64,000 nucleotides of DNA. It comes from a virus. The notes below the pieces were generated by a model. That model made no database searches. It saw only the letters and a program-made list of their open reading frames with translations, and was not told the origin of the DNA. A program made the position numbers and the translations under genes. Numbering within the stretch: the stretch's first letter is position 1; each line of letters starts with the position of its first letter. This document shows positions 718 through 61,260 of this stretch, one piece after another. The DNA is taken from IMG/VR virus record IMGVR_UViG_3300037549_000096; one strand, given 5' to 3'.

Positions 718-1548
718 ATGTCAAATACTGTTAATCATCCAGAATTATATGTTCATCTTTATCCTGAAGTAGTAAAATTATATACTGAAGAAAATTTAAC
801 AGCTAAACAAATATCTGAAAAACTTAATATAGGAGCTACTACAGTTAATAGAATTTTAAAACGTAATAATATAGATATGAATAGAATTTATCATAATAAA
901 TATTATTTTAATGAGAATGCTTTTGATTCTAATAATCCTGAAACAGCTTATTGGATAGGATTTTTATTAACAGATGGATGTGTTCATGAATATACTACTA
1001 AACATTGCTCACCTTGTATAACCTTACAATTAAAAGAAAGTGATAAATCTATTCTTGAAGAATATGCTAAATTTTTAGAATATCAAGGACTAATTACTCA
1101 AGATAAAATTAAACGATGGAAAATATCAATTAATTCTTATAAATTAGCAGAAGATTTAATTAAGTTTAATGTTACTCCAAGAAAAACCTTTTATGCTAAA
1201 GCGCCAGAAATTTTTGAAGATAATAATCTATTTTGGCGTGGTGTAATGGACGGTGATGGAAGTATGTGGTCAGGAGAAAAAGGAATTTTAAGAATAAATT
1301 TAACATCTGCTTCTTTAGATTTAATAGAACAGTTTCAAGAATATTGTAATAATATTTTAGATAATTCTTCTAACGTAAATATTACTTCTTTCTTTACTAA
1401 AGAAGAAAATGAAATGTATAGGGTTGTTTATACAGGAAATTTTGCTTTAAGAATTTTAGATATAATATATAAAGATAATGGACCTAAATTAGATAGAAAA
1501 TATAATAAATATATTAGTTATAAGGAAAATAACTATGCCTTGGTCTAA
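718..1548 (+). CDS. Free-standing LAGLIDADG homing endonuclease with N-terminal HTH
   Basis: Two LAGLIDADG helices (AYWIGFLLTDG, FWRGVMDGDG) and an HTH (TAKQISEKLNIGATTVNRIL). Confidence 0.85.
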   Translation: MSNTVNHPELYVHLYPEVVKLYTEENLTAKQISEKLNIGATTVNRILKRNNIDMNRIYHNKYYFNENAFDSNNPETAYWIGFLLTDGCVHEYTTKHCSPCITLQLKESDKSILEEYAKFLEYQGLITQDKIKRWKISINSYKLAEDLIKFNVTPRKTFYAKAPEIFEDNNLFWRGVMDGDGSMWSGEKGILRINLTSASLDLIEQFQEYCNNILDNSSNVNITSFFTKEENEMYRVVYTGNFALRILDIIYKDNGPKLDRKYNKYISYKENNYALV

Positions 1549-1790: not shown

Positions 1791-4700
1791 ATGTTAGAAG
1801 CATCAGAAATTATTAACAACATGAAACAAGGTATCAAAGAATCAATTGATTCTTTAGGTAAGATAGAAGCTGGCGGTAAAACTCTTGAATTTCAAAATGT
1901 GCATTTTGAGGATCATGATCCTCGTATTTCTGTAGACTTTGAAAAGCATAAACAAGCTAAACTTCATAATAAAACTTTAGGTATTGGTGTTTACGCAGAT
2001 GCTCATGTAACTGAAAATGGTAATACTTCTGTTGAAAAAGTAAAAATTGGTAATATGCCAGTTCCTACTTCAACGGGTGATTTTATCGTTGATGGTAATT
2101 CGTATAATATTGATTATCAGTTTAGACTTAAACCCGGTGCATATCTAAGAAAAAAGCAGAATGGTGAAATTGAAACCCATATCAATCCGATAGGGTTTCC
2201 TAATGCTAGAGTTACGATTGACCCTAAAACTTTAGGTCTTAGTGTAGGTATAGGTCAGGCTAATATTAACGCATTAGCTTTCTTACATGCTTTAGACGTT
2301 ACTACTGCTGAACAAGAACACATCCTTGGATCTGATATTTATAAAGCAAATTTAAATAAGTTAAACTTAGATAAAGAATTATCTAAACTTGAACAATCAA
2401 TTTCAAAAGGTGAAAAATTAGATAAAGGTCAATTATCTAAACTTCTTAAAGAGAAACTTGATACTGCTAAACTTGATCCAAGAGTTACCGGGATTACACT
2501 AGGAAAGCCCTTCAAAGACTTAGGGGCTGGCACTATCAAAGCAATTATACAAAAGACAATAGCTGGTTCTAAGGGTTTGGTAGAACCTGACGAACGTGAT
2601 GCTATGGCTTTTAAAAATGTATTTGCAGTAGATGATTTTGTTAAAGAACGTTTAAGTGGTCGAAATAAATACCAATTAGCATGGCAGGTTAAATCAGCAC
2701 TTGTTAAAGATAAACCGATTAAAGAATCCCTTTCTTCAAAATTCTTAGACTCAATGATTCATCCTTTGTTTACTTCTTCAGCTATTTCTGAGTTTTCTTC
2801 TAGAACTAATCAACTTCAACAATTAGGTGCGTTCCGCAAAGTCACTTCTACAGGTGAAGGCGGAATTATGAACGAACAAGCTATTACTACCGATATGCAA
2901 GCTGTTCATCCTACTCAAGCTTATTTTGTAGATCCTTTAAATACGCCCGAATCACAAAAAGCTGGTATTGCTGTTCAATTTACTCATGACGTTGAAATTA
3001 AAGATCATGAAGCTCATGCTCCATTTATTAATACTAAAACAGGTAAACGAGAATTAAAATCATCTATTGACTTATTTAATGAACATGTTTTACTGCCTGG
3101 TGCCGCTTCTCCAGATGGAACGATAGCAGCTATTCATAAGGGTAAACAAATTCAGGTTAAGCCCGAACAGATCACCTATAAACCTATTCACATTCATCAA
3201 GCATTTTCAGAAGGTGCTTTGATTGCGCCTGCTTTAAATTATAATCAAGGTTCTCGCGCTTCTATGAGAACTAGACACGCTGCACAAGCCGTATCTTTAG
3301 TAGATCGTGAAGCTCCCTTAGTTCAATCACTTCATCCAAGTGGTAGTACTTATGAACAAGAAGTAGCTAAGAAGATGGCGTTAATTGCGCCTGAAGATTT
3401 AACTTTCGTAGAAAAGAAAAATGATCGATTATTCTTTAAAACAAAAGATAATAAATTAGTAGATTCAGCTTTCTGGAATCATGATGTTGGAACGAATAAA
3501 TCTTTTATTAATCACGAAACTGATCATTTAACTCCTGGGATGAAGTTCACTCAAGGACAAATTATTGCTGATAGTAATTTTACGAAGAATGGAACTTTGG
3601 CATTAGGTAAGAATTTAAAAACTGCCTATATGCCCTGGCATGGTTTGAATTTTGAAGATGGTATTATTGTATCTGAATCAGGTGCTAAAAAGTTAACTTC
3701 TCAACATATGGCTCAACATGATTTTGACGTTCATAATGGCGTTACGAGAATGTCAAAAGCCGCTTATTTAGCTATGTTCCCTGGTAAATATACCAAAGAA
3801 CAATTAGATAAATTAGATGAAAATGGCGTAGCAAAACAAGGTATTGTTTTACAACCCGGCGATCCCATGCATTTAAAGATAGATAAACATCAAGGAACTA
3901 AAGAAGATGCTATCTTGGGTAGATTACATAAATCTTTAGTAAGTCCTTATAGGGATCATTCAGAAGTTTGGACTCATGTAACTCCTGGTACAGTAGTTGA
4001 CTCTGTATTAGATAAAACATTCGGTAAAATTAATGTTAAATATGAAGCCCCTGCACAAGTTGGTGATAAATTAGCTAATCGACACGGTGCTAAAGGTGTG
4101 ATATCTGCCATTATTCCTGATATTGAAATGCCTCAAAACAAAAAGAATGAAGTAACTGATGTTATTATTTCTCCTATGTCAGTTATTAGTCGTATGTCGA
4201 TGGGTCAGATTTTAGAAACTGCTGCTAGTAAGATTGCTAAAAAAACAGGTGAAACTTATAAGATTGGATCTTTTGATAATAAGGATCATGTTAGTCGGAT
4301 TCAACATGATTTAGCTAAACATAAACTATCTGATACTGAAGAACTTTTTGATAAACAAACAGGTCATTCATATGGAAAGATTTTAACTGGTTATCCTATT
4401 ATGCAAAAGTTGTTCAAATTGTCTCACGGCAATTTATCAGCTAGAGAATTAGGCGCATATGATTCAGATCATCAACCTATGCGGGGTGGTGATACTGGAT
4501 CTAAAGCTATTGATCAATTAACTCTTTACGGATTACTAGCTCATGGTCATCGTAATATCTTAAATGAAATTTCTACAGTTAAGGGTGATTATAATCCTGA
4601 TTTTTGGCAACGATTACAAATGGGATTACCATTACCTAAACCACAAACTCCGTTTGTTTATAAAAAATTTGAAGGTTTATTAGCTGCGTCTGGTGTTAAC

Positions 4701-7700
4701 GTTCGTCAAGATGGAAGTCAAAAGATTTTAGCTCCATTTACCGATAAAGATACAGACGCCATTGCTGGTGAAAATCATATTCAGAATTTTAAAATGTTGA
4801 ATTATGATATGGAGCCAGTTAAAGGTGGTTTATTTGATACTCAAATTACTGGTGGAATGAAAGGTACTAAATGGGCTAAATTTACTTTACCTAATGCAAT
4901 ACCTAATCCTTTATTTGAAACAGCTATTAAGAATATTTTAACAATAGATGATAAAACATTTAAAGGATTGCTTAATCACACTGTTAACGTAAATGGCAAA
5001 ACTGGTCATGAAGCTTTTGAGTCAATGTTAGGTAATATTCAAGTAAAACAGGAAATTGATTCTACTAAACAAGCTTTAAAAACAGCTACTAAAACAGGTA
5101 AAGATAAGTATCTTAAGAAGTTAAAACTTCTTAAAGCTCTTGAATCACAAAAACTGCATCCTAAAGATGCTTATATGATGAGTAAAGTCCCTGTGGTTCC
5201 CCCACAGTTTAGACCTGTTATTCAATTACCAAATGGTTCTTTATCTAAATCTAGTTTAAATATTCTTTATCGTGATGCTGGCTTAGTCGCTGGATCTATT
5301 AAGGAGCATGGGTTAGATGGAGATTTATATTCTGCTCTGTATCATTCTGTGGGTGCTATACAAGGCGTTAAAGACCCTATTAGCCCTCAAGCACAAAAAC
5401 AAAATGTTAAAGGAGCAATCCAGATCATTACAGGGTCTACTCCAAAGACCGGATTCTTCCAGTCTAAAGTAATTCGTAAACAACAAGACTTATCAGCCAG
5501 AGCTACGATAGCCTTGGATAATAATCTACATATGGATCAAATATCTATTCCTATAGATATGGCTAAATCAATTTATAAACCATTTGCAACTAAATTATTA
5601 ATTGATCAAGGTTATTCAGCTAAAGATGCTCATGACCATATTGATAAGTGGTCACATATTGGTAAAATTGCTATTATGAATGAAATGAATCAACGTCCGA
5701 TCATGATGAATCGTGCGCCTTCACTTCATCGTTTTTCAATTATGTCATTTAAGCCTACAGTTAATACTACTGATTCTACTGTATTAATTCCTGGTCTAAT
5801 CGTTAAACCATTTGGCGCTGACTTTGATGGTGATACCGTCATGCTTCATGTGCCTGTAGGTGAAAAAGCTAGAAAAGAAGCATTAAAGATGCTTCCTTCT
5901 AATAATTTATATAATGCTAAAGCTATGGACTTAAATTATACTCCTGATCAAGAATCGATCATGGGTTTACATTTAATGTCACATACTGCTAATGGTCGTA
6001 AATACTTTAATTCTTTATTACCTGCTTCTGTATCTAAAGTTACAGGTATTATGAAGAAAGAAGACATACATCAACGATTAGCTGAAGTAGCTGCTAAACA
6101 CCCTCATGAATATAATACTATTGCTACTAAGTTAAAAGAAGAAGGTGACAAGTTTGCAACATTGGCTGGTTTCTCAATTGGTTTGAAAGATATGAAACCA
6201 GTCAATGGAGAAAATGTTAAAAAGATTTATTCTAAAGCTATGCTTAAGCCTGGAGATAAATTAAAAAATCTTTTAGAAGCAGATGATTTTATTAAGAATC
6301 ATTCAACTGATGATAAAACTAATAATTATGTTAAAATGGTTACTTCACAATCCAAGGGAAATAAAGAGAATTTAAAACAGATTCTCTTTGCTCCTGGTAT
6401 TATGAAAGATCATAATGATCAGCCTATTCTTAGACCAGTTATGTCTAATTATGGTTCTGGAGTCGATTTTGCTGATTTCTGGACCGCTGGTTATGGCGCT
6501 CGTAAGGGTACTTTAGATCGGCAAATGTCAACCGCTAGACCTGGTGCTTTAAATAAGGAAATCGTTAATACATCAATGGCTATTGTTGTGTCGGAGAATG
6601 ATTGTGGTACGACAAATGGTATCTCTATTTCTGCAAAAGATCCTCACGTTCTTGGAAGATATGATGCTGAGTCTGGCAAACTTATTACGAAAGACTTATT
6701 AAAGAATAAAAAAGATATTATTGTACGTTCGCCTATTACTTGTGAAGCTACAAGAGGCGTTTGTAAGAAGTGTTATGGTCATGATGAATTTGGATCGATG
6801 CCAGATATAGGCCGGAATGTGGGTATTGTGTCGGCTCAAGCGATGTCAGAACCATTAACGCAAGCAGCTATGAAAACCTTTCATATGGGCGGAACGGTTT
6901 CAGGGGGCGGAGGGGCGTTTGGAGGGTTTGAAACGATTGAGCGGTTCTTAAAGGCTCCTAAAACTTTTAAAAACAAAGCTGTCTTAGCTAGAGAAGATGG
7001 AATAATTCATAGTATTAACCCTGGTGCTGCTGGTGGTTTTAATATTATGATTAATGAACAAGAACATTTCATTCATCCAGATGCTTCAGGTGAGTTATTA
7101 GTTAGAAAAGGACAAAAAGTAAATCGAGGCGATTTACTTAATGTAGGTATACCTCATCCTGAAGAAGCTTTAGATATATTAGGACCAATCAAAGGTAGTC
7201 ATTTAGTAGTTGATACGCTTCATAAACTTTATAAAGCGAGTGATATTAAAATCAATCGCCGTAATTTAGAAACAGTTATAAGAGGATTAACTGGTTTTGC
7301 TAAAGTGACTGATCCAGGTACATCTAAAACGTATGTCGAAAATGATGTAACTTCATTATCTAACGTTATGAAGTTTAATAAAGAAGCGAATAAATCTATG
7401 TCCTTGCCAATCCAGGAAAGTCATGGGATGATATTATCTGAGTCAATTGCAGGCATTAAGGCAGGTACTTCTCTTGACTTTAATCATTTGAAACATTTGG
7501 AAAAAGCTGGTCATAAACATATCGATGTTTATCACCAACCTATTCAATTTGATAGAATTTATATCGGAACTGATAAAGCCCCTAACAAATCTACCGATTG
7601 GTTAGGTGGTTTGAGCTTCAGATATCTTAAGAGAGGTATTGAAACTGGAGCTATGCATAGTCATATGTCTGATACTCATGGGTATCATCCTATGGCACCA

Positions 7701-7745
7701 TTTGTAACAGGCGAATTACAACATCATTCAGATGGTACTTACTAA
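1791..7745 (+). CDS. Single-chain fused beta-beta' (RpoB-RpoC-like) DNA-directed RNA polymerase, trimmed, 1984 aa
   Basis: Beta motifs in order: GDFIVDG, VHPT..DPLNTPE, LALGKN..AYMPWHGLNFEDGIIVSE, GDKLANRHGAKGVIS, SRMSMGQILE, TVKGD. Beta' motifs follow: GGLFD, PVVPPQFRP, NRAPSLHR, GADFDGD, bridge helix GARKGTLD, CEATRGVCKKCYG, trigger loop EPLTQAAMKTFH. Confidence 0.97.
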   Translation: MLEASEIINNMKQGIKESIDSLGKIEAGGKTLEFQNVHFEDHDPRISVDFEKHKQAKLHNKTLGIGVYADAHVTENGNTSVEKVKIGNMPVPTSTGDFIVDGNSYNIDYQFRLKPGAYLRKKQNGEIETHINPIGFPNARVTIDPKTLGLSVGIGQANINALAFLHALDVTTAEQEHILGSDIYKANLNKLNLDKELSKLEQSISKGEKLDKGQLSKLLKEKLDTAKLDPRVTGITLGKPFKDLGAGTIKAIIQKTIAGSKGLVEPDERDAMAFKNVFAVDDFVKERLSGRNKYQLAWQVKSALVKDKPIKESLSSKFLDSMIHPLFTSSAISEFSSRTNQLQQLGAFRKVTSTGEGGIMNEQAITTDMQAVHPTQAYFVDPLNTPESQKAGIAVQFTHDVEIKDHEAHAPFINTKTGKRELKSSIDLFNEHVLLPGAASPDGTIAAIHKGKQIQVKPEQITYKPIHIHQAFSEGALIAPALNYNQGSRASMRTRHAAQAVSLVDREAPLVQSLHPSGSTYEQEVAKKMALIAPEDLTFVEKKNDRLFFKTKDNKLVDSAFWNHDVGTNKSFINHETDHLTPGMKFTQGQIIADSNFTKNGTLALGKNLKTAYMPWHGLNFEDGIIVSESGAKKLTSQHMAQHDFDVHNGVTRMSKAAYLAMFPGKYTKEQLDKLDENGVAKQGIVLQPGDPMHLKIDKHQGTKEDAILGRLHKSLVSPYRDHSEVWTHVTPGTVVDSVLDKTFGKINVKYEAPAQVGDKLANRHGAKGVISAIIPDIEMPQNKKNEVTDVIISPMSVISRMSMGQILETAASKIAKKTGETYKIGSFDNKDHVSRIQHDLAKHKLSDTEELFDKQTGHSYGKILTGYPIMQKLFKLSHGNLSARELGAYDSDHQPMRGGDTGSKAIDQLTLYGLLAHGHRNILNEISTVKGDYNPDFWQRLQMGLPLPKPQTPFVYKKFEGLLAASGVNVRQDGSQKILAPFTDKDTDAIAGENHIQNFKMLNYDMEPVKGGLFDTQITGGMKGTKWAKFTLPNAIPNPLFETAIKNILTIDDKTFKGLLNHTVNVNGKTGHEAFESMLGNIQVKQEIDSTKQALKTATKTGKDKYLKKLKLLKALESQKLHPKDAYMMSKVPVVPPQFRPVIQLPNGSLSKSSLNILYRDAGLVAGSIKEHGLDGDLYSALYHSVGAIQGVKDPISPQAQKQNVKGAIQIITGSTPKTGFFQSKVIRKQQDLSARATIALDNNLHMDQISIPIDMAKSIYKPFATKLLIDQGYSAKDAHDHIDKWSHIGKIAIMNEMNQRPIMMNRAPSLHRFSIMSFKPTVNTTDSTVLIPGLIVKPFGADFDGDTVMLHVPVGEKARKEALKMLPSNNLYNAKAMDLNYTPDQESIMGLHLMSHTANGRKYFNSLLPASVSKVTGIMKKEDIHQRLAEVAAKHPHEYNTIATKLKEEGDKFATLAGFSIGLKDMKPVNGENVKKIYSKAMLKPGDKLKNLLEADDFIKNHSTDDKTNNYVKMVTSQSKGNKENLKQILFAPGIMKDHNDQPILRPVMSNYGSGVDFADFWTAGYGARKGTLDRQMSTARPGALNKEIVNTSMAIVVSENDCGTTNGISISAKDPHVLGRYDAESGKLITKDLLKNKKDIIVRSPITCEATRGVCKKCYGHDEFGSMPDIGRNVGIVSAQAMSEPLTQAAMKTFHMGGTVSGGGGAFGGFETIERFLKAPKTFKNKAVLAREDGIIHSINPGAAGGFNIMINEQEHFIHPDASGELLVRKGQKVNRGDLLNVGIPHPEEALDILGPIKGSHLVVDTLHKLYKASDIKINRRNLETVIRGLTGFAKVTDPGTSKTYVENDVTSLSNVMKFNKEANKSMSLPIQESHGMILSESIAGIKAGTSLDFNHLKHLEKAGHKHIDVYHQPIQFDRIYIGTDKAPNKSTDWLGGLSFRYLKRGIETGAMHSHMSDTHGYHPMAPFVTGELQHHSDGTY

Positions 7746-7759
7746 CTGGAGAAAGTTAA

Positions 7760-9604
7760 ATGTTAAAAGAAGCTTTTATTACTGATATGTTTCCTACTGA
7801 ACAAAAGGTTAGGCTTTCTGAGAATTCAGCAGCTTGGCCCGAAACTATCAATTCTTTAATTTTACGTAAATATCCTGAATTAGCTAATTATATTGATAAA
7901 ATTGTCTTTAGTCATTTAGATAAGATTAAAGGTAATTCTATTGGATATGTTACGACGATTAATAATATTTTTAAAATTCCATTTGTCGTAGATAAGTTTA
8001 CTCTTAGTCCTCTTGATGTTTTTATTAAGGGTAATGTTTATGGTCATCTTTCAACTGATTCTATTAAAAAGTTAGTATCGAATTCTTGGCCTTTTAAACA
8101 AGTTAGCAAGAATGATTTTGTACAATTAAAAAAGTTAGCGGCTACAAGTCTTACTGATATTGATGTTGAAACTATTACAAAAAATCCAGAACTTGTTAAA
8201 TTAGCTGAAGAATTAGCTAATGAATACCCTGAAGTAATTATTAATTTAAGTACGAATTTAGATAATGTACAAATATTGAAACAAGCTGGTCTTGATCCTT
8301 ATGGTCATGAAAAAGTAGCTGCTTTAGAATTAAATCATACTAGAACTGGTATTATTTTACAACATTTTGGCAAAGTAGATGAAACGCTTTCTTTAGGTGA
8401 ATGTGCAGCTAGATTCGGGGAAGAGAAAGTAGCACAAGTTTTATATCATGGTTATATTCCTACTGTACTTCGTGAAATCATGGTTAAGACAGCCGATGAA
8501 CTTAATCCTATTCAATTTAAATTTGATGTTAACTTACCTAGAACAGTAAATATCGCTGACGGTGTTGGTGGTTTCGTTCGTGGTAATATGTATGAACTTA
8601 GAGATATTAAAACTCCAAATAGAAAAGAAGGTCATATTTTCTTAAGTACTCGCGCTAAAGATCCTGTTTATATGACAATCTTTACGCCTCCTGCTAAAGA
8701 CCGTATTTATTCAATTGCAGAACGAGCTACTTTAGGTGATATCGTAGATGATCTTTCTAGGTCTTCTGGTAAGGCGGGACAAGCTTTAGCTATCTTATTA
8801 GGTGATATCGTTTATGGTCCCTTTGATTTAATCACTGAAGCTGTTAACGGAAATACTCATATTCTCTCTATTAAAGATGGTTATGAATATGATTCTAAAC
8901 GTATTCATATTACTAATGATGTTAAATCAATCGTTGTTGAAGGTGATGAGATTTACGTGCCTAAACATGCGAAAGTTTTATGTTTAGGTGAACCTTATCA
9001 AATGGAGCATCCATTACACAAAGCCGCTGCTCTTGCTGTAACGGTAGCTGTTTCTCCTGATAAGCAATCTTATAATATTATCGATGCAGGTGTAAGCGGA
9101 TTACCTGCTGGATCTTTACAGAATATTAAGAAAACTAAAGCAACGACAGCTTTAATGCATTGCGGATTGAGCGAAGTGGAAGCTAAACAGGCTCTTTCTA
9201 ATGCAGCGACTACTGGTGTTCATAAATTTAACGCTACTCCTACTGCTACTCAATCTGAAACTCAAACTAGAGATGAAGTACAATCATTATCTAGTAAGAA
9301 AATTTTAGAGAAGAAAGCTGAAATGATTCGTAAGATTATGGAAAAATCAGAGTTTATTAAAATAGCCATGAATTACGGAGATGAAGAAAGTGTGGATATG
9401 GCACTTGGTCTTAATTTAGTAACTCCTACTAGCGTCAAAAAATATCGTATTTTGATTCCGAAAATTGAAGATACGATTGACGGTTTGAGTAAATTACTTA
9501 TGGCAAAACGTGTAGGTGGTTCTATAATTCCTTTAGACGAAGGTAAGCTTACCTCCGCTATTTCAGATCTTCATACCGTCATGTGTGAACTCACCGGGAT
9601 CTAG
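7760..9604 (+). CDS. 614-aa K-x-A-rich protein, probable virion/head protein
   Basis: Long ORF with RBS and about 12 K-x-A sites (LKEA, KKLAA, VKLAE, LKQAG, EKVAA, VKTAD, HKAAA, EKKAE, IKIAM). Function is inferred. Confidence 0.6.
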   Translation: MLKEAFITDMFPTEQKVRLSENSAAWPETINSLILRKYPELANYIDKIVFSHLDKIKGNSIGYVTTINNIFKIPFVVDKFTLSPLDVFIKGNVYGHLSTDSIKKLVSNSWPFKQVSKNDFVQLKKLAATSLTDIDVETITKNPELVKLAEELANEYPEVIINLSTNLDNVQILKQAGLDPYGHEKVAALELNHTRTGIILQHFGKVDETLSLGECAARFGEEKVAQVLYHGYIPTVLREIMVKTADELNPIQFKFDVNLPRTVNIADGVGGFVRGNMYELRDIKTPNRKEGHIFLSTRAKDPVYMTIFTPPAKDRIYSIAERATLGDIVDDLSRSSGKAGQALAILLGDIVYGPFDLITEAVNGNTHILSIKDGYEYDSKRIHITNDVKSIVVEGDEIYVPKHAKVLCLGEPYQMEHPLHKAAALAVTVAVSPDKQSYNIIDAGVSGLPAGSLQNIKKTKATTALMHCGLSEVEAKQALSNAATTGVHKFNATPTATQSETQTRDEVQSLSSKKILEKKAEMIRKIMEKSEFIKIAMNYGDEESVDMALGLNLVTPTSVKKYRILIPKIEDTIDGLSKLLMAKRVGGSIIPLDEGKLTSAISDLHTVMCELTGI

Positions 9605-10475
9605 CTTGCAGAAATCTCCTTTTGGAAAAGCTCTATTATATTTGGCTGTGGTTGAATGCAAGATTAATTTCGAGCAACCTAGCCTCATGGAGTTTGTTCA
9701 AAAGTTGAGTATGTATTTCCCATTTATATCTATTGATTCTCCCTTTGGTTATGTTCAAGATCGTTTAGATCGCATTAGTAACTTACCTGCTACGATTATT
9801 AGAGGTAATTACAATAAACAGGCACTACTAAAATTTCTAAAAGAAACTGATCTAATTAATTTACATGAACTTCTACCTAGACAACAATTTCAAGATTTAC
9901 TTTATGACGTAGATTTGCGACGTAAAGTAGATGGTATGTCTTTATGTGGTTTTCGGCATCAAGAGATAGAACTTGAAATTAAACAATATATTACCGATAT
10001 TGATCCAGTAGTTGTTAAAACGTATCTTAATTGTTTTGCTGATTTTTCTAATATGACTTATGACGAAAAACGAAACTTTGTTATTAATACTTTTGAAGAA
10101 CCTGCCGAAAAAATAACATATGTAAAGTGTTTAGAAAATAAATCTAGGGATATAATTAGAGCATATCTAGGTGTTAATACAAGAGTTTTTAATCCAATTG
10201 AAATGATTAATAGATATGCTCAGATTATTACTATTAAAATTAATGAGGGATTAAGAGAAAGTGATGAAGTTAAGTTACAGGGTTATATCAAATTAGGACT
10301 TAGATCAGCGGAAACATTAGATAAATTTGGTGTTGGTAATAAAGATGCTGCTGAATTGTTACTTGCTGCATTAGCTAAAAAGCCAGAAGAAATAGGATTG
10401 AATACACCTAAACCAATGTCAGTAGAACAACTAGAAGATATGTACTTAGAGCAACAAAAACCACCAGTGATGTAA
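9585..10475 (+). CDS. Hypothetical helical protein co-transcribed with the RNAP (start uncertain)
   Basis: 296-aa ORF followed by a terminator. No family recognised. Confidence 0.7.
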   Translation: MNSPGSSLQKSPFGKALLYLAVVECKINFEQPSLMEFVQKLSMYFPFISIDSPFGYVQDRLDRISNLPATIIRGNYNKQALLKFLKETDLINLHELLPRQQFQDLLYDVDLRRKVDGMSLCGFRHQEIELEIKQYITDIDPVVVKTYLNCFADFSNMTYDEKRNFVINTFEEPAEKITYVKCLENKSRDIIRAYLGVNTRVFNPIEMINRYAQIITIKINEGLRESDEVKLQGYIKLGLRSAETLDKFGVGNKDAAELLLAALAKKPEEIGLNTPKPMSVEQLEDMYLEQQKPPVM

Positions 10476-10497
10476 AATGACCAATATCTAAAAAAAT

Positions 10498-10530
10498 AAT
10501 AAGCCCCTAATTGTTAGGGGCTTATTTCTT
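10498..10530 (+). terminator. Intrinsic terminator, possibly bidirectional
   Basis: Perfect 13-bp stem aataagcccctaa-ttg-ttaggggcttatt, with T-rich 3' and A-rich 5' flanks. Confidence 0.85.
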
Positions 10531-10542
10531 TAAGGAGTTTTA

Positions 10543-10749
10543 ATGTCAAAGAACGATCTTAAGAATATAGCTTTTGATTATGAATGTTCAACACCATGCA
10601 AAACATGTAGAAAACGAACATCGTGCTTAGTCCGACCAAAAGAAGGAAAATGCACAAGCCACGAAGAAGGAACTCCTTGGGTGATGCCATATAGGGAACC
10701 TGTAATAAAAGATCCGATTGAAGAAATTATCTATAAGCGAAACTTATAA
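10543..10749 (+). CDS. Small Cys-rich protein
   Basis: AAGGAG RBS. CxxC...C...C pattern. Confidence 0.7.
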   Translation: MSKNDLKNIAFDYECSTPCKTCRKRTSCLVRPKEGKCTSHEEGTPWVMPYREPVIKDPIEEIIYKRNL

Positions 10750-15288: not shown

Positions 15289-16374
15289 TTATTTCTCCTT
15301 ATTTTTGAGGTAATTATCCAACCAGGGTTCAATTTTAGTTTTAACAATTTCGTTATATTCATCAAGTAAATTTTGAGGAATAATACGATTGTTTGCTATT
15401 GATTGAAGTTCTTTTTGAATATCGGGGTCAACATGAAAAGTTGAATAATTATGAGCTTTTTTATGACATTTATTACATAATGTAATTAAATTTTTAACAT
15501 CATAAACTAGTTTTAAAGATTCTTTATTATTATAATTGGTTTTAGAAACCATTTGAATATGATGAACTTCAAAATTTTCATTTTTAACATTACATTTTTT
15601 GCATATAAAATTATCTAATTTTAAAATTAGAAATTTAATCGGATTTACTAAAGATGCTCTAATTAATAAAGACTCTATCGTAGCATACTGTTCTTCTTTT
15701 AAACCTTTACTTATTCGTTGTTTAATATGATATTTTTTGAGTCTTTTAATAGCGTTTTTACGTTTTAAACATCCACAAGAGGTTGTTGTTCCGTTGAATA
15801 TATTACTGGCTTGAGCTATAAATTCAACTTGTGGATCATGATATGGACATAAACAAACCCAATTATCATTACATGAATCATTTTCAATATTTAATGGTTC
15901 TATAATTAAAACTTTAGTTTTAGAATTTAAATAATTATAATAATTATATTTTCTTTTATTTATTCCGGTTTGTTTCATAGATTTTAAAAAATTACACTTA
16001 CATGATGTAGTTTTACCTTTTAAAGCATTAACTGAAGTTTCAAATATTTTTCCACAATGACATTTTATCTTCCATTGATCATTACATGTTATATGATTTT
16101 GATTAATTGGTTCTAGAATAGTGCAGTTATGAAATATCTGTCCTATCCAGTTTATTTTTCTAGCTTCTTGTATTTTTGTTAAATGTTTTTCTAGTATACA
16201 ACTACATGATTTAGTTTGTCCTGATTTTAAATCCGCTGCTCTACTTTCAAAATAATTACCACAATGACATTTAATTAACCATAAGCTTTGACCTGTAACG
16301 CAATTCTCATCAACTGGTTCAAGTATCTTACAGTTGTTGAAAACTTGTCCTTTCCAGTTGATGAGTTTTGGCAT
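15289..16374 (-). CDS. HNH homing endonuclease with repeated N-terminal DNA-binding modules
   Basis: Repeats INWxGQxFxNCxILEP...WxIKCHCG...SCxC. C-terminal CKKC..EVHHI..NLITLCNKCH. Confidence 0.9.
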   Translation of the reverse strand: MPKLINWKGQVFNNCKILEPVDENCVTGQSLWLIKCHCGNYFESRAADLKSGQTKSCSCILEKHLTKIQEARKINWIGQIFHNCTILEPINQNHITCNDQWKIKCHCGKIFETSVNALKGKTTSCKCNFLKSMKQTGINKRKYNYYNYLNSKTKVLIIEPLNIENDSCNDNWVCLCPYHDPQVEFIAQASNIFNGTTTSCGCLKRKNAIKRLKKYHIKQRISKGLKEEQYATIESLLIRASLVNPIKFLILKLDNFICKKCNVKNENFEVHHIQMVSKTNYNNKESLKLVYDVKNLITLCNKCHKKAHNYSTFHVDPDIQKELQSIANNRIIPQNLLDEYNEIVKTKIEPWLDNYLKNKEK

Positions 16375-20600: not shown

Positions 20601-21907
20601 CCTAACGTCATTCTTAATCTCTGCTACATTACGTAACATTACACGTAAGTTGGCCCCTGGATGATTACCGTCTGTAACATTAAATTGATCATTAAATAAA
20701 TACTTAGTATCTACTTCAACCCAGCAACCAGCAGCTTCACCTAATTTTTGACGATAACTAGAAGCTTGTGAAGATCCACCAGTTGTTACAGGTTCATCTA
20801 CAATCTTAATCATCATGCGGTTATCATGTGTACAAGTTAAAGCTACAGCGTCACCACCGATATTAATTTCATTAGGATAAGGTTTAGGGATAACTTGCAC
20901 ATACATTCCACAATACTTACAAGTGGAAGTAAAGAATCGTGGCTTATCGTAATGTGAAGCAGGAACATGTTGAACAAAGTTGCCCATTGTATGACAACGC
21001 TTTGTAGCTGACATTATTGCTTGTTCTTTTAATTTACGAATCTTGGTAGGCATTGTCGTTTGGTCCTTTATCATCTAAGACATAATTATCGGGAACAACT
21101 TTCCAATAACGAGAAGAGTTTTCATAAAATCCATTATTAATAACTTGAGCAATTCGTTCTGCATGTTCTTTTGTCATTAATGGTAAGTTTAAAAACTTTT
21201 CCATTGGGTAATCACGACCAAAATTATCAGTTTCCACTATTCGCATAGAATTTCCATTCAGTAGAATTACGATTCCAGTTATTTAGAAGTTCATAAAACT
21301 TTTGAATACAATCAGAAGCCATGAACACTTTTTGATGAAAGGTTTCTTTTGTCTTCATATGTATTATCTTATATTCACACAAATAGCCATTTGTATGTTT
21401 AGCTAGTTCTTCATCATGTGTATATCGAATATCATTTTCTTTAACGTAATCTGGATGAGTTATGTTAGACATTTGTTTTAACCTTGATGCCTAAAAATGC
21501 TGCATGATCATTTAAATCAATATCGTTTTCAAAAGGACCATAAGTAGCTACAATTTTTTTAGAAGTAGTGTCAATGTGAAGTAAAAATAAACGTTTTACC
21601 ATACCGCACAGATTAGGATTAGGATGAACAGGATCATGTAATAATCCCCAAACTTTCTTTCCTTCAATTACGCCAATGTATTCATGCTTCTTTGTCATTT
21701 TTGCCCCTTACATTTATTTTGAATAATTGTATTGTTACCAATTTCGTTATCATTAATATCAAGTAACATTTTACATTTTTTACATTGTGATCTATGATAA
21801 TTCGGATTCATTGTAGAATATGGTTTCCAAAATCGTTCCATTTCATGACCCTGTATTTCTGCGGCCAATTTAGCTAATCGTTTAAATTCTCTAATGACGG
21901 TCGGCAT
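17648..21907 (-). other. Run of about 15 small hypothetical early genes
   Basis: Abutting or overlapping minus-strand ORFs of 43-195 aa. No family recognised with confidence. Confidence 0.75.
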
Positions 21908-22632
21908 AATGGATCATCCTTAATTAAATTGTTAGAAATTTTAGTCATATGTATAATAAAATCTTCATAATTCATTTCTCTTTTCATATAATTACATAAT
22001 GTGCAACAAGTTACACAATTATTTAAAATATACCCTAATGTATTATCTTTACGATCTATTCCATTAAAATATATTTCATTTGTAGAATTATGAAGTTTTA
22101 ATTGACGTTTAGGTTCGTCGCCACAATAAAAACATTTATCTTTACAAAATAATAAAAACTCTTCTTTATTTAGAGTAAATTCTAGATTTTTAGAAGAAGC
22201 GTTTCTTTTATATCCGTCAAATAATTTATTCCAACCTGCTAGATTATTTTCTAATCTATGTCCTTTTCCTATATTTTCAGCAGTTAAGCAACCACAATGA
22301 GTAGTGGATTTTCTTTGTATATTTTTACCTAATGCTTCTTTAGTATTACCACAATCACATTGACATAACCAATATTGTTCTCTAGATGTATTTTTATGTA
22401 ATTTTTTAATCACTACCAAATTACCTGATCTTGAACCAATAAGATTAGTTGTTCTACAGTCTTTACATTGAGTTCTATTACCAGCGTTTAATTGAAATGT
22501 CTCTACCGTTACTTCATTCCCACAATCACATTTACATAGCCATGCTCGTTTACCTTCTTTATTTTCCGCTACACATAAAGCTGTAAGTTTACCAAAACGT
22601 TTATTGGTTAAATCATCAGGTAATCCAGTCAT
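21874..22632 (-). CDS. HNH homing endonuclease with two WLCxCDCG modules
   Basis: DLTNKRFGKL..WLCKCDCG twice, then CFYCG..NGIDRKDNTLGY..NCVTCCTLCNYMK. Confidence 0.9.
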   Translation of the reverse strand: MTGLPDDLTNKRFGKLTALCVAENKEGKRAWLCKCDCGNEVTVETFQLNAGNRTQCKDCRTTNLIGSRSGNLVVIKKLHKNTSREQYWLCQCDCGNTKEALGKNIQRKSTTHCGCLTAENIGKGHRLENNLAGWNKLFDGYKRNASSKNLEFTLNKEEFLLFCKDKCFYCGDEPKRQLKLHNSTNEIYFNGIDRKDNTLGYILNNCVTCCTLCNYMKREMNYEDFIIHMTKISNNLIKDDPLCRPSLENLND

Positions 22633-36851: not shown

Positions 36852-37898
36852 TTATACACGACACAAAACGCCCATAATTTTAGTACTATCATTTACGGCT
36901 TGAAGTAATCTCATATCTTTTCCAGCACATAACTTTAAAATATCATTTTTCAAAAATAGTTTTGACGAACTAGCTTTGAAAAAATCAGCTACTACTGCAC
37001 AGTTAAAAATTAAATCGGAATTATCTACTTTGATTTGAGTACTGCCTACTTCAGTTATTCCTATTAGTAAATCTTTCTTAAACTCTAATCGAACATAATG
37101 ATTAGGATTTAATACTGATAATTCTTCCGCTTTCTTTAATGTAATTAATTTTTCACAAAAACCTAAAAACTCATCACTACTAATACTTATAACAGAATTA
37201 TTGGTTTTTTGCACTTCACTAAATAACATTTCAAATTTAGGTATAGTTTTAGAAGAAGTAGAAATCATAACCCATTCTTCATCATTTTTAAAATACAATC
37301 TCCTATTATCCACACAATATGCATCAATGTTACTAGTGACTTTTTGTAATAACTTTAATTCTACAGCTATATTTATATCTGTTTCTGTTGTTTCAAAAAT
37401 AGAAACAGAACGAGATAGTTGACAAATATCATTTCCTTTAATTACAATTAAATCTTCAAAGTCTTTATCCATTCCTTTTACAGTTTTAAAGTGCATTCCC
37501 CTAATTGTTATTAATTTTTCCTCAAAATTAGGAGGAACAGGTATCCAGTTTTGAGGTTTTGGTATATAGAACACAGTGTCTACATCCATTATTGGAATAG
37601 CTGCTTTATCTTCTTCATTTTCCATAGAAAGTTTATTTTTATTAATCTTAATTTCTATGTTAGCATTTGAGTCAAATACTTTAAGAGCAGCTTCAAGAGC
37701 AAAAATGTTAACTGCACATTCCATATCTTTCATATCTACACTTAAAATAGTATTAATACAAATACCAGTCATACCATTACTGGCTCGTAATTCAAAAATA
37801 CCATTTTTAACCTTAAATACACAGTTCTGAGCAAAATCGCCTTTTCCTGAAAATTCGCATCCTCTTGTTACAATTTTTCTAAGAACACTACTTAACAT
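36852..37898 (-). CDS. DNA polymerase beta sliding-clamp-like protein
   Basis: About 350 aa with a repeating beta/alpha pattern. FELRASNG..GI resembles the DnaN N-terminus, and it sits among replication genes. Confidence 0.55.
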   Translation of the reverse strand: MLSSVLRKIVTRGCEFSGKGDFAQNCVFKVKNGIFELRASNGMTGICINTILSVDMKDMECAVNIFALEAALKVFDSNANIEIKINKNKLSMENEEDKAAIPIMDVDTVFYIPKPQNWIPVPPNFEEKLITIRGMHFKTVKGMDKDFEDLIVIKGNDICQLSRSVSIFETTETDINIAVELKLLQKVTSNIDAYCVDNRRLYFKNDEEWVMISTSSKTIPKFEMLFSEVQKTNNSVISISSDEFLGFCEKLITLKKAEELSVLNPNHYVRLEFKKDLLIGITEVGSTQIKVDNSDLIFNCAVVADFFKASSSKLFLKNDILKLCAGKDMRLLQAVNDSTKIMGVLCRV

Positions 37899-38808
37899 AA
37901 TTGCTCCTAGAAATTAATTCATTTATATATTCTTCTAAATTATCACTTTCAGTATAAGGGATAATTAGAAGAATAATATTGTTTTCTTTTGCATAACGTA
38001 CTTTTGATTCGTCTCTTTCTAATTGTTGTATAAAATCTTCTTTAGTTTTATAATATCGATTAGGATATTCATAATGCTGATAACCATGATATTCAAAAGC
38101 TATTTTACGTTCTGCGTTATAACCGTCCCATTCAAACCTTTGATCAACTTCATAAAATCTAGTTTTTTTAAATTCTATGTTTAGTTTTTGTTCTAATAAT
38201 TGTTTACATAATTTTTCTGTTTTAAAAGAAGCACATTCAGGACACCATTGATTGTAAAATTTAACATTATTCCATCTTGCTTCCCATTGATGTTTTTCTT
38301 TACATTCCCAAATCACATTCGTTGAATTGTTAATGTAATTTTCAGTAATTAAACGACCTTCTTTACTTAATGCATATTCTTGTAAATCTTTTATATCTCC
38401 ACGATACAAAAGACTTAATTTTACATCAGAACACATAGGACACCAAGCATCACGATATTTAAGATTACCGTAATCTGATTCCCATTGATGACCTTGTTCA
38501 CATTCCCATAGTAAATGACTACGTGCATTAACGTATTCGGTAGAAATTAATTTTCCGCCTTTACGTTTTGCATATTCATGTAATTCACTTATATCTATCT
38601 GTTTTTTTGTAGAATTTCTTTCAAATGCACAGAATGGACACCAGGAATTTTTATACTTGATGTTATTCCAGGGTGTTTCCCATTGATGTAATTTATCACA
38701 TTCCCATAACAAATTACTATGTGCATTGATATATTCTGTAGAAATTAATCTTCCACATTTATTTATAGCATGTTGCTGTAATATTATTATGTCTGTTTTT
38801 CGTTTCAT
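37888..38808 (-). CDS. Homing endonuclease: three WECxxxHxW..WCPxC zinc-ribbon repeats plus a Vsr-like/PD-(D/E)XK nuclease
   Basis: Three clear repeats, then EWDGY..IAFEYHGYQHY..RDESK..LLIIPY. Confidence 0.85.
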   Translation of the reverse strand: MKRKTDIIILQQHAINKCGRLISTEYINAHSNLLWECDKLHQWETPWNNIKYKNSWCPFCAFERNSTKKQIDISELHEYAKRKGGKLISTEYVNARSHLLWECEQGHQWESDYGNLKYRDAWCPMCSDVKLSLLYRGDIKDLQEYALSKEGRLITENYINNSTNVIWECKEKHQWEARWNNVKFYNQWCPECASFKTEKLCKQLLEQKLNIEFKKTRFYEVDQRFEWDGYNAERKIAFEYHGYQHYEYPNRYYKTKEDFIQQLERDESKVRYAKENNIILLIIPYTESDNLEEYINELISRSNYVK

Positions 38809-52507: not shown

Positions 52508-54073
52508 TTGCACATGGATATATCTAACATTGATTTCATACAAAGAACAATGTTCTTAGAAGGTCAACCGTGGAGATTTACGGATAGACCATATATATTA
52601 CCTATCATTAATGATGATCCGTGGAAACTTATCATCATGACAGGTAGACAGTCAGAAAAGTCTACTTCTATGGCTGGAAAACACATAGCTTCTGCTTGTA
52701 GAACGCCTCATCAATCATCTTTATATATTAATCCTACTATGACTCAGACTTCTGTTTATAGTAGAAAGAAAATTGATGCAGTATTTGAACAATCACCATT
52801 ATTAAAAGCTAATTTTTGGCCTGGAAGTAAGGGTTTTAGCGTTACTGAAAAAAGATTAAAAAATAATCATACAATGTACTTTAGATCTGCTTATCATGAC
52901 GCAGATACTATTCGTGGTTTAACATCTGATAGAACTTTAATTGATGAACGTCAAGATATGATCAATGATTGTATTCCGGTCATTGAAGAATGTTCTTCGC
53001 ATAGACCTAATGCAGTATTTATGCAAACAGGTACTCCTAAAACTTTATCTAATGGTTTTGAATATGAATGGCAGTTATCAACTCAAAGCGAATGGACTAT
53101 TAAGTGTTTTCATTGTGGACGTTGGAATATACTAAGTATTAAAAGTATCATTCCAGGTAAAAATGGATTATGGTGTGAAAAATGTTCTAAAGATATATTC
53201 ACACAACACGGAACATGGATATCATACGGAAAAGAAAAAGCTAAAGTACACGGTTATAGATTTCCTCAAATTATTCTCCCAAGTATTTATATTAATTGGG
53301 AGAAGTTGTTTATTAAGATGGAAAATTATTCTATAGCTACTTTAATGAATGAAGTATTTGGTCATTCATATGATGCTGGTGTTAAACCTATTACTAGAGA
53401 AGAAATAGCTAAATGTTGTAATCAAGAAAGAGTTATGGAACTTGTATCTAATGCTAACGCATTGGGGTATGAAGTCTTTGCAGGTGTAGATTGGGGAACT
53501 GGAGAACTTGGTTATACAATTTTACAGATTGGACATTATAATCCTAACTCTAATAAAATAGTTATCACTTTATCTAAACGTTATATAGGTAAAGAAGCTG
53601 AACCTGAATACATGTTACAAGATATAGCTAGAAAATTATTAGATAATTGTGTAATGATATGTGGTGTTGATCACGGTTTTAGTTTTGGTTTAGTTGATCG
53701 TCTTAAATCATTAGTAAGTGGAAAATGTAAGGTTGTAGCCTTTCAACATACTAATTTTAAAGGTTATGTAGGTTATAATAAAAAAGGTACTCATTATGTA
53801 ACGAATAGAACTGCTGTTATGGCTGATACATTTGAAGCTATTAAACAAACATTCTTTGAATTTCCTGCTTGGAATATATACGAAACTTTTGCTAATGATT
53901 TTATGAATATTGAAGTAGAGTATAATGAACGCACTAGAACTATGAAATATGATCATATTCCTACTAATCCAGATGATGCTTTTCATTCTTTGTTATATTT
54001 ATATATAACTTATCTTATTAGAGTCAAAAAACGTGCGCCTGAGTCTTATGACCCAGATCGTGATGAACCTTGA
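52508..54073 (+). CDS. Terminase large subunit (GpA-like, with CxxC pairs)
   Basis: Walker A GRQSEKS, DTIRG, Walker B LIDE, GTPKT, nuclease GVDWG and DDAFH. Confidence 0.88.
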   Translation: MHMDISNIDFIQRTMFLEGQPWRFTDRPYILPIINDDPWKLIIMTGRQSEKSTSMAGKHIASACRTPHQSSLYINPTMTQTSVYSRKKIDAVFEQSPLLKANFWPGSKGFSVTEKRLKNNHTMYFRSAYHDADTIRGLTSDRTLIDERQDMINDCIPVIEECSSHRPNAVFMQTGTPKTLSNGFEYEWQLSTQSEWTIKCFHCGRWNILSIKSIIPGKNGLWCEKCSKDIFTQHGTWISYGKEKAKVHGYRFPQIILPSIYINWEKLFIKMENYSIATLMNEVFGHSYDAGVKPITREEIAKCCNQERVMELVSNANALGYEVFAGVDWGTGELGYTILQIGHYNPNSNKIVITLSKRYIGKEAEPEYMLQDIARKLLDNCVMICGVDHGFSFGLVDRLKSLVSGKCKVVAFQHTNFKGYVGYNKKGTHYVTNRTAVMADTFEAIKQTFFEFPAWNIYETFANDFMNIEVEYNERTRTMKYDHIPTNPDDAFHSLLYLYITYLIRVKKRAPESYDPDRDEP

Positions 54074-56823: not shown

Positions 56824-57015
56824 ATGATTGTTAAATTAGCTGGTCCTAGTTCTTTAGTAGCTGGTGTTGGTAGTGTTTTAACTAAAACTGTAGCTAAAGA
56901 TACTGCTAATGTAGCTGCTAAAGCTGTTCCTGCAATTAAAAAGTTTGTACCTGTACCTCCTGGTGGTGGTCAACAAGCTTGGATTGCGGCTCAAAAAGCA
57001 GCGGGTAAATTATAA
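56824..57015 (+). CDS. MIVKLA-leader small protein (start corrected to 56824)
   Basis: GGAG RBS, atgattgttaaattagc start, TAATG coupling to the protease gene. Confidence 0.75.
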   Translation: MIVKLAGPSSLVAGVGSVLTKTVAKDTANVAAKAVPAIKKFVPVPPGGGQQAWIAAQKAAGKL

Positions 57016-60348: not shown

Positions 60349-61260
60349 ATGAAAATGAATGTATCTCAACTTTGGGACGCTACCGAAACGATAGAAAAAA
60401 CAGCGGAAACTTCTAACGCTGTCGGATTCTTCACTCGTAGTCGTCTTCGTCAAGAATGCGTTCTTGACCGTGTTCTTCCTCCCCAGTTCATTACTCAGAA
60501 TGATCTGGAACGCAATACAAATGATGACTATCCGTTAATTCGCGTTGAGAAAGAACTCGAAACTACGGCTTTCGCTCTTGGTTTCCGTGGTAGTGCTGAA
60601 ACTGACTGGTTCGATGGTTCTAAGTATGAAATTTACTTCGGACAGGTTAGAACTCAGGAACACAATAAGACTCAAGAAGAATTGATGACCATGAGAGCGC
60701 CTGTGGTTGATTATTTCAACCGTAATGGTGTTTTCGATATCGGTGCTAAGGCTGATATCACCTTTAAGGCTGGTTTAGATGCTGCTGCTGCAGCTGCCTC
60801 TAACGTAATTACTTCTACTTCTACCGCCTTTACTAAGGCAGATGCAGTTAATATGCTTAAGACTATGGAAATTAAGCGTATGCCTGCTGGTTGCTGGATC
60901 GTAACTGAATCTCGTTGGAATGACATTCTCTTAATGTCTCCCAATGATTTAGGTTATACTCTGGTTGGTGAATTAGCTATCAATGGTGCGAAGAAGATTC
61001 CTACCTTCCTCGATATTCCTGTTGTACGCACAATTGAAGCTTATCAGGCTGGTGTTGTTACTTCAGTTTGGGATAATAAGAGCGTTTATCTTTGCTCTAC
61101 TCCTGACTTCCTTGGTAAGAACTTTATTCTCCAGGATGTTCAGTATCACATGGAACGTAAGTATAATTTACTGACTTGGGCCGCTTGGATGACTCGTGGT
61201 GCTGGTATCGGTAATATTAACGCTTCTGTTCGCGCTGATTTCCCTAACGCTGGCATCTAA
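60349..61260 (+). CDS. Major capsid protein (compact, probably HK97/encapsulin-like fold)
   Basis: AAGGAG RBS, strongly biased codons, position, and R.RLR....DRVLPP..IT / FLDIPVVRTI / FLGK motifs. Confidence 0.75.
   Translation: MKMNVSQLWDATETIEKTAETSNAVGFFTRSRLRQECVLDRVLPPQFITQNDLERNTNDDYPLIRVEKELETTAFALGFRGSAETDWFDGSKYEIYFGQVRTQEHNKTQEELMTMRAPVVDYFNRNGVFDIGAKADITFKAGLDAAAAAASNVITSTSTAFTKADAVNMLKTMEIKRMPAGCWIVTESRWNDILLMSPNDLGYTLVGELAINGAKKIPTFLDIPVVRTIEAYQAGVVTSVWDNKSVYLCSTPDFLGKNFILQDVQYHMERKYNLLTWAAWMTRGAGIGNINASVRADFPNAGI

Follow-up and report, generated by a model that had tools for sequence, protein, structure and literature searches.

Five or more chains, assembled on a scaffold provided by the alpha dimer, normally make up a cell-type RNA polymerase (RNAP). 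Here we describe a phage gene in which the two catalytic subunits of such an enzyme, beta and beta', are joined in that order in one polypeptide of 1984 amino acids (aa). The gene occupies positions 1791..7745 on the plus strand of a 64,000-nucleotide stretch of the virus record IMGVR_UViG_3300037549_000096 (the whole of this 64-kb stretch is called the window below), which comes from a tailed phage with a genome of about 168 kb (the longest contig on which the database records the protein measures 168,567 bp) and a GC content of about 31%. The sequence, together with a structural model of the joined region, indicates that the protein is probably the working catalytic core of a bacterial-type two-barrel RNAP in a single 220-kDa chain. 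We propose that the covalent beta-beta' join would replace the alpha dimer as assembly scaffold, and that promoters would be recognized by a sigma-like factor of the phage, a separate protein whose gene would lie just outside the window, a few kb upstream of that for the RNAP; both steps are moderately supported. The weakest step of the proposal is that the enzyme would probably be made late in infection, packaged with the product of a neighboring gene for a 614-aa protein and delivered with the DNA, such that phage transcription could start independently of the host polymerase.

Domain architecture and catalytic elements

The open reading frame (ORF) begins with an ATG and has no internal stops. 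In Pfam searches the beta domains come first (Rpb2_3, aa 335-402; Rpb2_6, aa 586-899, E 1e-49) and are followed in the same chain by the beta' domains Rpb1_1 (aa 1083-1163), Rpb1_2 (aa 1293-1367), Rpb1_4 (aa 1489-1541) and Rpb1_5 (aa 1557-1844, E 2.5e-22), while matches of the protein to beta' chains in the PDB reach E-values down to 2e-75. The similarity spans both halves: aa 12-960 align end to end with residues 30-1043 of a cyanobacterial beta subunit of 1100 aa, and the beta' half aligns with residues 147-503 and 616-1088 of B. subtilis beta'.

Comparison with the E. coli subunits and with 22 diverse members of the phage family described below showed that the elements of the two-barrel core, namely the aspartate loop, the two beta lysines, the bridge helix and the trigger loop, are all present: 1) The aspartate triad D1344/D1346/D1348 is retained in a motif of the form GADFDGD, the family consensus being NADFDGD, and the same triad is invariant in the 22 family members. 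2) The second-barrel lysines K760 and K768, which align with E. coli K1065 and K1073, are likewise invariant in this set. 3) In the bridge helix R1571 aligns to E. coli R780. 4) In the trigger loop M1694 and H1698 align to E. coli M932 and H936, without the SI3 insert of the latter enzyme. 5) The second zinc site is kept as C1605, C1651, C1658 and C1661, which are all four cysteines of the protein. 6) Region H is kept through to the C-terminus. The rifampicin pocket carries the changes D516S, H526A, S531T, L533T and I572A (E. coli numbering); in light of the known resistance mutations, this alignment predicts that the fused RNAP is insensitive to rifampicin.

The beta-beta' junction and the extent of trimming

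An alignment of 72 sequences, E. coli RpoB and RpoC among them, pairs the C-terminus of E. coli beta (..SLGINIEL) with aa 954-973; beta' continues directly thereafter from about its residue 16, which places a linker-free junction at about residue 973 (nucleotides ~4700-4760). In an AlphaFold2 model of aa 880-1300, with a mean predicted local distance difference test score (pLDDT) of 87 and a predicted template modelling score (pTM) of 0.83, the junction forms a beta-hairpin with pLDDT 87-95. This model superposes on the N-terminal halves of bacterial beta' subunits with template modelling (TM) scores of about 0.6, and its top structural matches include cyanobacterial RpoC1, one half of a naturally divided beta'. 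Pfam order, alignment and the confidently folded join thus agree with an earlier note on this stretch, which had described the beta and then the beta' regions as collinear with a seamless junction near 4700-4740.

The same note had spoken of a trimmed enzyme, setting 1984 aa against about 2750 aa for the E. coli subunits. These figures hold (E. coli beta and beta' sum to 2749 aa), but the extent of the trimming was overstated. Counting blocks of at least 12, the protein lacks 712 residues relative to E. coli and only 222 relative to a minimal 2250-aa pair of Halanaerobiaceae. Judged from these alignments, the trimming is mostly the lack of lineage-specific inserts of E. coli, namely beta 225-343 (SI1), 934-1043 (SI2) and 1130-1183, and beta' 941-1133 (SI3). 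Parts lost that are otherwise universal comprise some 40 residues at the C-terminal end of beta, some 15 at the N-terminal end of beta', the N-terminal zinc-binding domain of beta' (E. coli 66-97, whose C70, C72, C85 and C88 are without counterpart), a 22-residue clamp segment and, following the active site, about 50 residues (E. coli beta' 516-571).

A large phage family and the age of the fusion

A protein search with the fused RNAP returned 745 matches at E <= 1e-10. All of the best 120 of these, which come from JGI, ENA, Logan and NCBI data and are 30-81% identical to the query, carry Rpb2 and Rpb1 domains in one chain; they are mostly of 1975-2110 aa, with a few truncated or intein-enlarged, and lie on contigs of up to 217 kb. 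A scan of IMG/VR with the single protein found no relatives, but an alignment-based scan did recover them and confirmed at least 520 loci. Most of the 79 loci that were fetched have one ORF of ~2000-2200 aa, and about 20 of them have a beta-plus-beta'N ORF (~1450 aa) with a separate beta'C ORF (~615 aa); beta and beta' are separate in all the bacterial loci fetched. The window gene shares the architecture of the single-ORF members, with beta in residues 1-975, beta' through to region H, placement in the phage clade and downstream of it a gene related to gp218 of Salmonella phage Arash. Two relatives with 80% identity (our loci L084 and L085, 152-kb and 166-kb marine metagenome contigs) show the same order of RNAP, 615-aa and ~290-aa genes. 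Many family members carry inteins within the RNAP gene (PF14528, PF14890), and some fused IMG/VR members are free of cysteine and hence have lost the second zinc site too.

We computed trees with FastTree (72 rows, 1966 columns) and with IQ-TREE under LG+G4 (37 rows, 1877 columns); the cellular sample consisted of 23 bacterial pairs, with archaea, eukaryotes, Campylobacterota, Helicobacter, Wolbachia and the mReC sequences discussed below lying outside it. In both trees all fused and two-chain phage enzymes form one clade and all bacterial pairs another (support 100 each), and the branching inside a bacterial clade that the earlier note had envisaged as a sign of recent capture is not seen. 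The two-chain forms (Arash, D69 and five IMG/VR loci) constitute in both trees a single clade nested among the fused forms, and one fused sequence branches outside the other phage enzymes with support of 96. The window groups with L084, L085, L003 and L004 in a subclade whose sister group is the two-chain clade, at a modest support of 83-90 in both trees. If the tree is rooted on its cellular side, fusion is hence the ancestral state and the split derived; the site of the split coincides with the shortened stretch aa 1398-1423 of the window protein.

Among 185,579 species genomes the best cellular matches show 24-27% identity and come from many phyla. The sole match at 32% (L087, DAOQAF010000001.1) is a 204-kb contig in a GTDB Bacteroidales bin, and since its 2869-aa fused RNAP is a family member containing an intein, it is very probably a mis-binned phage genome. 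As far as these sequences go, the fusion is old and family-wide in a large clade of tailed phages of ~150-220 kb, which lies outside the sampled bacteria.

Assembly and promoter recognition

Hidden Markov models (HMMs) of alpha and omega (PF01000, PF01193 and PF01192) matched 14 of 14 control genomes but neither Arash nor any of three IMG/VR relatives whose genomes are rated as 100% complete. Within the window no alpha, omega or sigma was found among the 30 largest or nearest ORFs (all searched against PHROGs and ten against Pfam), the Arash sigma proteins gave no tblastn match, and sigma HMMs gave none even when run without speed filters. These scans bear out the statement of the earlier note that no alpha, omega or sigma gene is recognizable here. 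Lacking both the N-terminal zinc-binding domain of beta' and, in Arash and the three relatives, genes for alpha and omega, the enzyme departs from the bacterial core. The proposal that the covalent join replaces the alpha-dimer scaffold rests on this absence of alpha and omega genes from complete relatives, and the junction, which is common to every sampled family member, fits an alpha-independent assembly. Hence the suggestion that the fusion may remove the need for alpha is plausible from the sequences, whereas the accompanying idea of a self-contained enzyme is too strong because a sigma-like factor is conserved in the lineage.

Of the two sigma-like genes in Arash, the one for a 234-aa protein, at the Gp10 position, passes Pfam Sigma70_r3. 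A homologue of Gp10 in L085 (223 aa, 33% identity, E 2e-23) is encoded ~8.5 kb upstream of the RNAP and scores 24.8 bits with Sigma70_r3, below the cut-off of 25.3; another lies ~4 kb upstream of the RNAP in L003, and distant members of this set show the region 2 motif FDP..G..F.TYA..W and region 4.2 motifs. A predicted complex of aa 985-1400 of the L085 RNAP with its sigma-like factor scored 0.40, with the best control at 0.00; at least 46% of contacts recur between the prediction runs, and the pLDDT of the partner is 64 or more. The mark used here is reached by 58 of 80 solved complexes and by 2 of 110 mismatches, and among the scores of up to 0.60 that reach it are those of 7 of the 80 solved complexes and of both passing mismatches. 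As sigma-clamp complexes have already been solved, the pass may reflect such structures having been learned by the predictor, and the prediction lends weak support to the interaction.

Possible packaging of the enzyme in the virion

In mass spectrometry of the Arash virion the beta-beta'N chain Gp206 gave the most spectra of all (3516), and Gp216 (1210), Gp218 (1149) and the sigma factor Gp10 (467) were also detected (PMC10585845). The fused RNAP of the window has 4 cysteines where 35 are expected from the other proteins of the phage (Poisson P 6e-11); the median is 4 in the family and 18 in bacterial pairs, and the cysteine content within the window is 0.8% in the head module and 2.0% in the replication block. 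The RNAP gene is preceded, at a distance of 1-7 kb and in the same orientation, by a portal gene in more than 50 loci. An iterated HMM of the 614-aa protein, run over all ORFs of the fetched loci, gave 56 matches, nearly all just downstream of the RNAP gene, and matched Arash gp218 with E 4.5e-26 and D69_0266 with E 2e-10. Taken together, the Arash proteomics, the depletion of cysteine and the conserved virion-protein neighbor suggest, but do not prove, that the RNAP is packaged, and we consider the matter about evenly balanced.

Tentatively, and with clearly less assurance than for the catalytic core itself, we further advance the possibility that the window enzyme represents the ancestral form of a widespread phage transcription machine: a minimal, nearly cysteine-free single chain without alpha and omega, which would be packed with the sigma-like factor and the 614-aa partner and injected for early transcription independent of the host. 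Under this scenario the join would have made the alpha dimer dispensable, and the Arash-type enzymes would later have been split where the cyanobacterial beta' is divided.

Alternative explanations

Several observations weigh against one or another part of this proposal. The fully fused members are known from sequence alone. At the active site G replaces the usual N of the catalytic motif; as GADFDGD is also found in several close relatives, the replacement is tolerated. L084 has no detectable sigma homologue within 10 kb of the RNAP even without speed filters, and the putative sigma-like gene of the window's own genome would lie outside the window, being represented by an index match that resembles the L085 factor ~6.3 kb before the window start, at the place predicted by synteny. 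The remaining points concern packaging, and with them the alternative that the same enzyme stays out of the virion, being made after infection from host-type promoters and transcribing middle and late genes with the phage sigma-like factor, in the manner of the non-virion polymerases of phiKZ and AR9 or of a T4-style late-sigma system with its own core. Sequences resembling sigma-70 or extended -10 elements can be made out by eye upstream of several genes, including TGGTATACT before the hairpin that precedes the RNAP gene, but promoter-like sites are no commoner in the window than in shuffled sequence (57 found, 58.6 expected). The Arash virion preparation also yielded many obviously non-structural enzymes, among them ribonucleotide reductases, ligases, a kinase and a primase, so that, as the authors of that study acknowledge, some of the abundant proteins of the lysate may have been carried over (PMC10585845); yet the polymerase chains are among the most abundant proteins of that preparation, and the sigma factor is there as well. 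Neither the RNAP nor the 614-aa protein has the N-terminal MIIKLA sequence, a proposed cargo tag, and in the window's own subclade the Arash-type portal gene is not adjacent to the RNAP, the corresponding HMM giving no match in either the window or L084 even with the speed filters off. Conversely, most of the family keeps the RNAP in synteny with the portal and with Gp218-like virion genes, and the extreme depletion of cysteine resembles the head module and not the replication enzymes. We regard an unpackaged enzyme as rather unlikely, though as an alternative to be taken seriously.

A different objection concerns assembly: the fused chain might still need the host alpha dimer, and perhaps omega, the fusion being neutral or linked to expression and not a replacement of alpha. 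The absence of an alpha gene from the phage is compatible with such use of host alpha, and the conserved C-terminal regions of beta and beta' are kept to the end of region H. Moreover, cellular beta-beta' fusions, both the natural RpoBC of Helicobacter and the engineered fusions of E. coli, stay dependent on alpha. Yet the hosts of the family are very different (Salmonella, Vibrio, and those of marine and sediment metagenomes) and the polymerase is only 24-27% identical to cellular enzymes, which makes a conserved fit to the alpha of each host less likely; if packaged, the enzyme would moreover have to act before it meets much host alpha, and the polymerases of phiKZ/AR9-type phages are known to function without alpha (PMC7598289). 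Dependence on host alpha thus appears improbable to us. Still further removed is the possibility that the gene is an artefact or a recent host capture, that is an assembly chimera, a bacterial rpoBC placed in the wrong bin or a pseudogene in decay. No sign of these was found, although the filing of L087 under a Bacteroidales metagenome-assembled genome shows that mis-binning can happen. Hundreds of independent contigs, drawn from several data sources, show the uninterrupted architecture, which disposes of the assembly artefact that the earlier note had named as a risk; the window bears terminase, capsid protein, protease and phage replication genes; and the fully supported separation from bacteria is accompanied by catalytic residues that are invariant across diverse members. 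As far as sequence data reach, an artefact or capture is refuted, and we give it almost no weight. We retain the single-chain, bacterial-type catalytic core as the preferred reading of this gene.

Gene neighborhood

The coordinates of the RNAP, its parts and the neighboring features are collected in Table 1. The window also encodes a DNA ligase, helicases, a primase/helicase-like protein, exonucleases and several homing endonucleases. Plain BLASTP searches with the 614-aa and 296-aa proteins that follow the RNAP gave no match to Arash or D69 proteins; only the iterated HMM links the former to Gp218. The 614-aa protein has no Pfam or PHROG match, and its AlphaFold2 model (pLDDT 67, pTM 0.36) no PDB match at E <= 0.001; an OB- or HIN-like fold was considered for it and dismissed, the weak rows at a TM-score of 0.09 not being meaningful. 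The 296-aa protein likewise matches no Pfam or PHROG family, and a PD-(D/E)XK assignment was set aside since the match of its L085 orthologue (E 0.036) is not significant.

Within region 1721-1790, the extended -10-like sequence mentioned above is immediately followed by the hairpin at 1748-1771 and then by the RNAP start codon; this hairpin may be either the terminator of an upstream gene for a 61-aa protein or a 5' untranslated element of the RNAP transcript. A k-mer comparison of 21 intergenic regions found no shared phage-specific motif. Directly upstream of the RNAP unit (718-1548, plus strand) lies a free-standing LAGLIDADG homing endonuclease gene (LAGLIDADG_3, E 7.5e-12; phrog_4645, E 2.6e-43) with an N-terminal helix-turn-helix, to which a weak Sigma70_r4 match of the protein merely corresponds; the 80% relatives carry other genes at this position. 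Further HNH or homing endonuclease genes, all on the minus strand (15289-16374, 21874-22632 and 37888-38808), are scattered in the replication block, and this load of selfish endonucleases is unusually high for 64 kb. Small ORFs sharing the MIIKLA N-terminus occupy the first 713 positions of the window on the plus strand (e.g. 244-525); one of 93 aa has a sub-threshold glycine-zipper match (PF13441, E 1.2e-5). Where a portal gene would be expected, next after the terminase, a plus-strand gene (54188-55741) encodes a 517-aa protein with zero cysteines, which matches neither PHROGs nor the Arash-type portal HMM. The head module of the window's subclade seems unrelated to that of the Arash-like phages, although their RNAPs are sisters.

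Table 1. Positions of the fused RNA polymerase gene, its parts and associated features in the window
Feature	Position	Strand	Evidence
Fused beta-beta' RNA polymerase gene, P0001, 1984 aa	1791..7745	+	ORF, Pfam order, PDB matches
Beta-like half, aa 1-973; K760, K768; without E. coli SI1, SI2 and 1130-1183 insert	1791..4709	+	Alignments
Beta/beta' junction without linker; beta end ..SGVNVRQ to beta' ~residue 16	4700..4760	+	E. coli alignment, AlphaFold2
Beta'-like half, aa 974-1984; shortened clamp helices, catalytic loop, bridge helix, trigger loop, second zinc site, region H	4710..7745	+	Pfam, alignments
Zinc-binding domain deletion site, alignment gap after aa 1023	4857..4865	+	Alignment
Catalytic aspartate triad D1344/D1346/D1348, GADFDGD	5820..5834	+	Alignment
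Shortened stretch aa 1398-1423 replacing E. coli beta' 516-571; Arash/D69-type split site	5982..6059	+	Alignments
Second zinc site C1605, C1651, C1658, C1661	6603..6773	+	Alignment
GC-rich hairpin with T-rich tail, 20 nucleotides before RNAP start codon	1748..1771	+	Hairpin scan
614-aa downstream partner, homologue of Arash virion protein gp218	7760..9604	+	Iterated HMM
296-aa protein ending the RNAP unit, conserved only in the window's subclade	9585..10475	+	HMM matches only L003, L004, L084-L086
13-bp hairpin closing the RNAP-614-296 unit; terminator-like on minus strand by scan	10498..10526	.	Hairpin scan
Large terminase	52508-54073		
Head protease-like protein	57015-58583		
Major head protein	60349-61260		

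Implications

A natural 220-kDa single chain that holds all the catalytic elements, and that can be aligned residue by residue, would be the simplest known version of the cell-type RNAP and might be put to use as a minimal model for the enzymes of cells. If it is indeed free of alpha and omega, the roles of the assembly platform, of the zinc-binding domain and of the sigma-clamp interface would become directly testable; it would likewise offer an attractive one-gene transcription module, probably insensitive to rifampicin, and, being easy to align, a marker with which to trace the deep history of a very large group of environmental phages. If it is injected with the DNA, it would constitute a third independent route to host-independent early transcription, beside those of N4/crAss and of phiKZ.

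Relationship to known polymerases

The closest cultured relatives of the window enzyme, at 30-33% identity, are Gp206 and Gp216 of Arash (OQ632216.1; PMC10585845) and the enzymes of Vibrio phages D69, D148 and D181. The Arash/D69 type shares with it the linker-free beta/beta' junction and the Gp218-like downstream gene; Arash has a sigma-like protein, Gp10, with a homologue in the window's lineage, and is also without alpha and omega genes. It differs in consisting of two chains encoded several kb apart, beta plus beta'N (~1525 aa) and beta'C (~606 aa), cut at the position of window aa ~1398, whereas the window chain is continuous through aa 1398-1423. The Arash paper names these chains 'beta' and 'beta'' and is silent on the beta-beta'N fusion (PMC10585845).

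Cell-like beta and beta' have also been found with cellular HMMs in large uncultured tailed phages, the mReC polymerases, which fall outside the cellular clades (Weinheimer & Aylward 2020, PMC7481178), in agreement with the caution of the earlier note that the class is not wholly new. In the rows of that dataset that were examined, every one has a separate beta (900-1521 aa) and beta' (887-1391 aa), unlike the one gene of the window. The mReC filter called for a beta and a beta' of at least 800 aa each and for NADxDGD (PMC7481178), and the window protein, being fused and bearing GADFDGD, would not pass it; the paper applies the term 'fused' to crAssphage only (PMC7481178). The position of the window family outside bacteria in our trees is compatible with membership of the mReC clade. 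The enzyme of the Cobetia phage Carin-5 (L168, PV155638.1), the one separate-gene phage sampled, sits on a very long branch away from the fused family. In this cultured phage of 155 kb the genes at 3811-10636 follow the order sigma, beta' (1083 aa), beta (927 aa), the reverse of the bacterial and fused order.

The RpoBC fusions of Helicobacter and Wolbachia have the same order in one polypeptide, exploiting the closeness of the beta C-terminus and the beta' N-terminus in the clamp. They are full-length housekeeping enzymes of ~2900 aa, nested in their own bacterial lineages, and need alpha, omega and sigma. In contrast, the window protein is ~900 aa shorter, is without the zinc-binding domain and branches outside the 23 sampled bacterial pairs, neither genus being in that sample. 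In the RNAP of the yeast killer plasmids, beta is fused to the first part of beta'.

The polymerases of the jumbo phages phiKZ and AR9 are also two-barrel enzymes without alpha and omega and come in virion and non-virion versions, but each is divided among four or five polypeptides (PMC7598289, PMC7824862). They have no sigma and have diverged much further; their PHROG families match the window protein locally, with E 6e-27 to 3e-4, and two unannotated PHROG families of cell-like length match it at 4e-86 and 3e-59. CrAssphage gp66 and YonO resemble the window protein in having two barrels in one chain, and crAss gp66 is delivered by the virion. According to the mReC paper, they are missed by cellular beta/beta' HMMs (PMC7481178), whereas the window protein matches such models at E 1e-49 and aligns end to end with cellular subunits; both lines bear out the earlier view that this is a cell-like enzyme distinct from the phiKZ, crAss and YonO types. 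In the literature searched, of which coverage was imperfect (one search missed the Arash paper), we found no account of a fully fused cell-like phage polymerase, and the family of ~2000-aa phage beta-beta' proteins is undescribed in those papers. Thus, the novelty lies in the fully fused, slimmed and cell-like phage beta-beta', the cell-like phage polymerases of the mReC group and the two-chain enzyme of Arash being already known.

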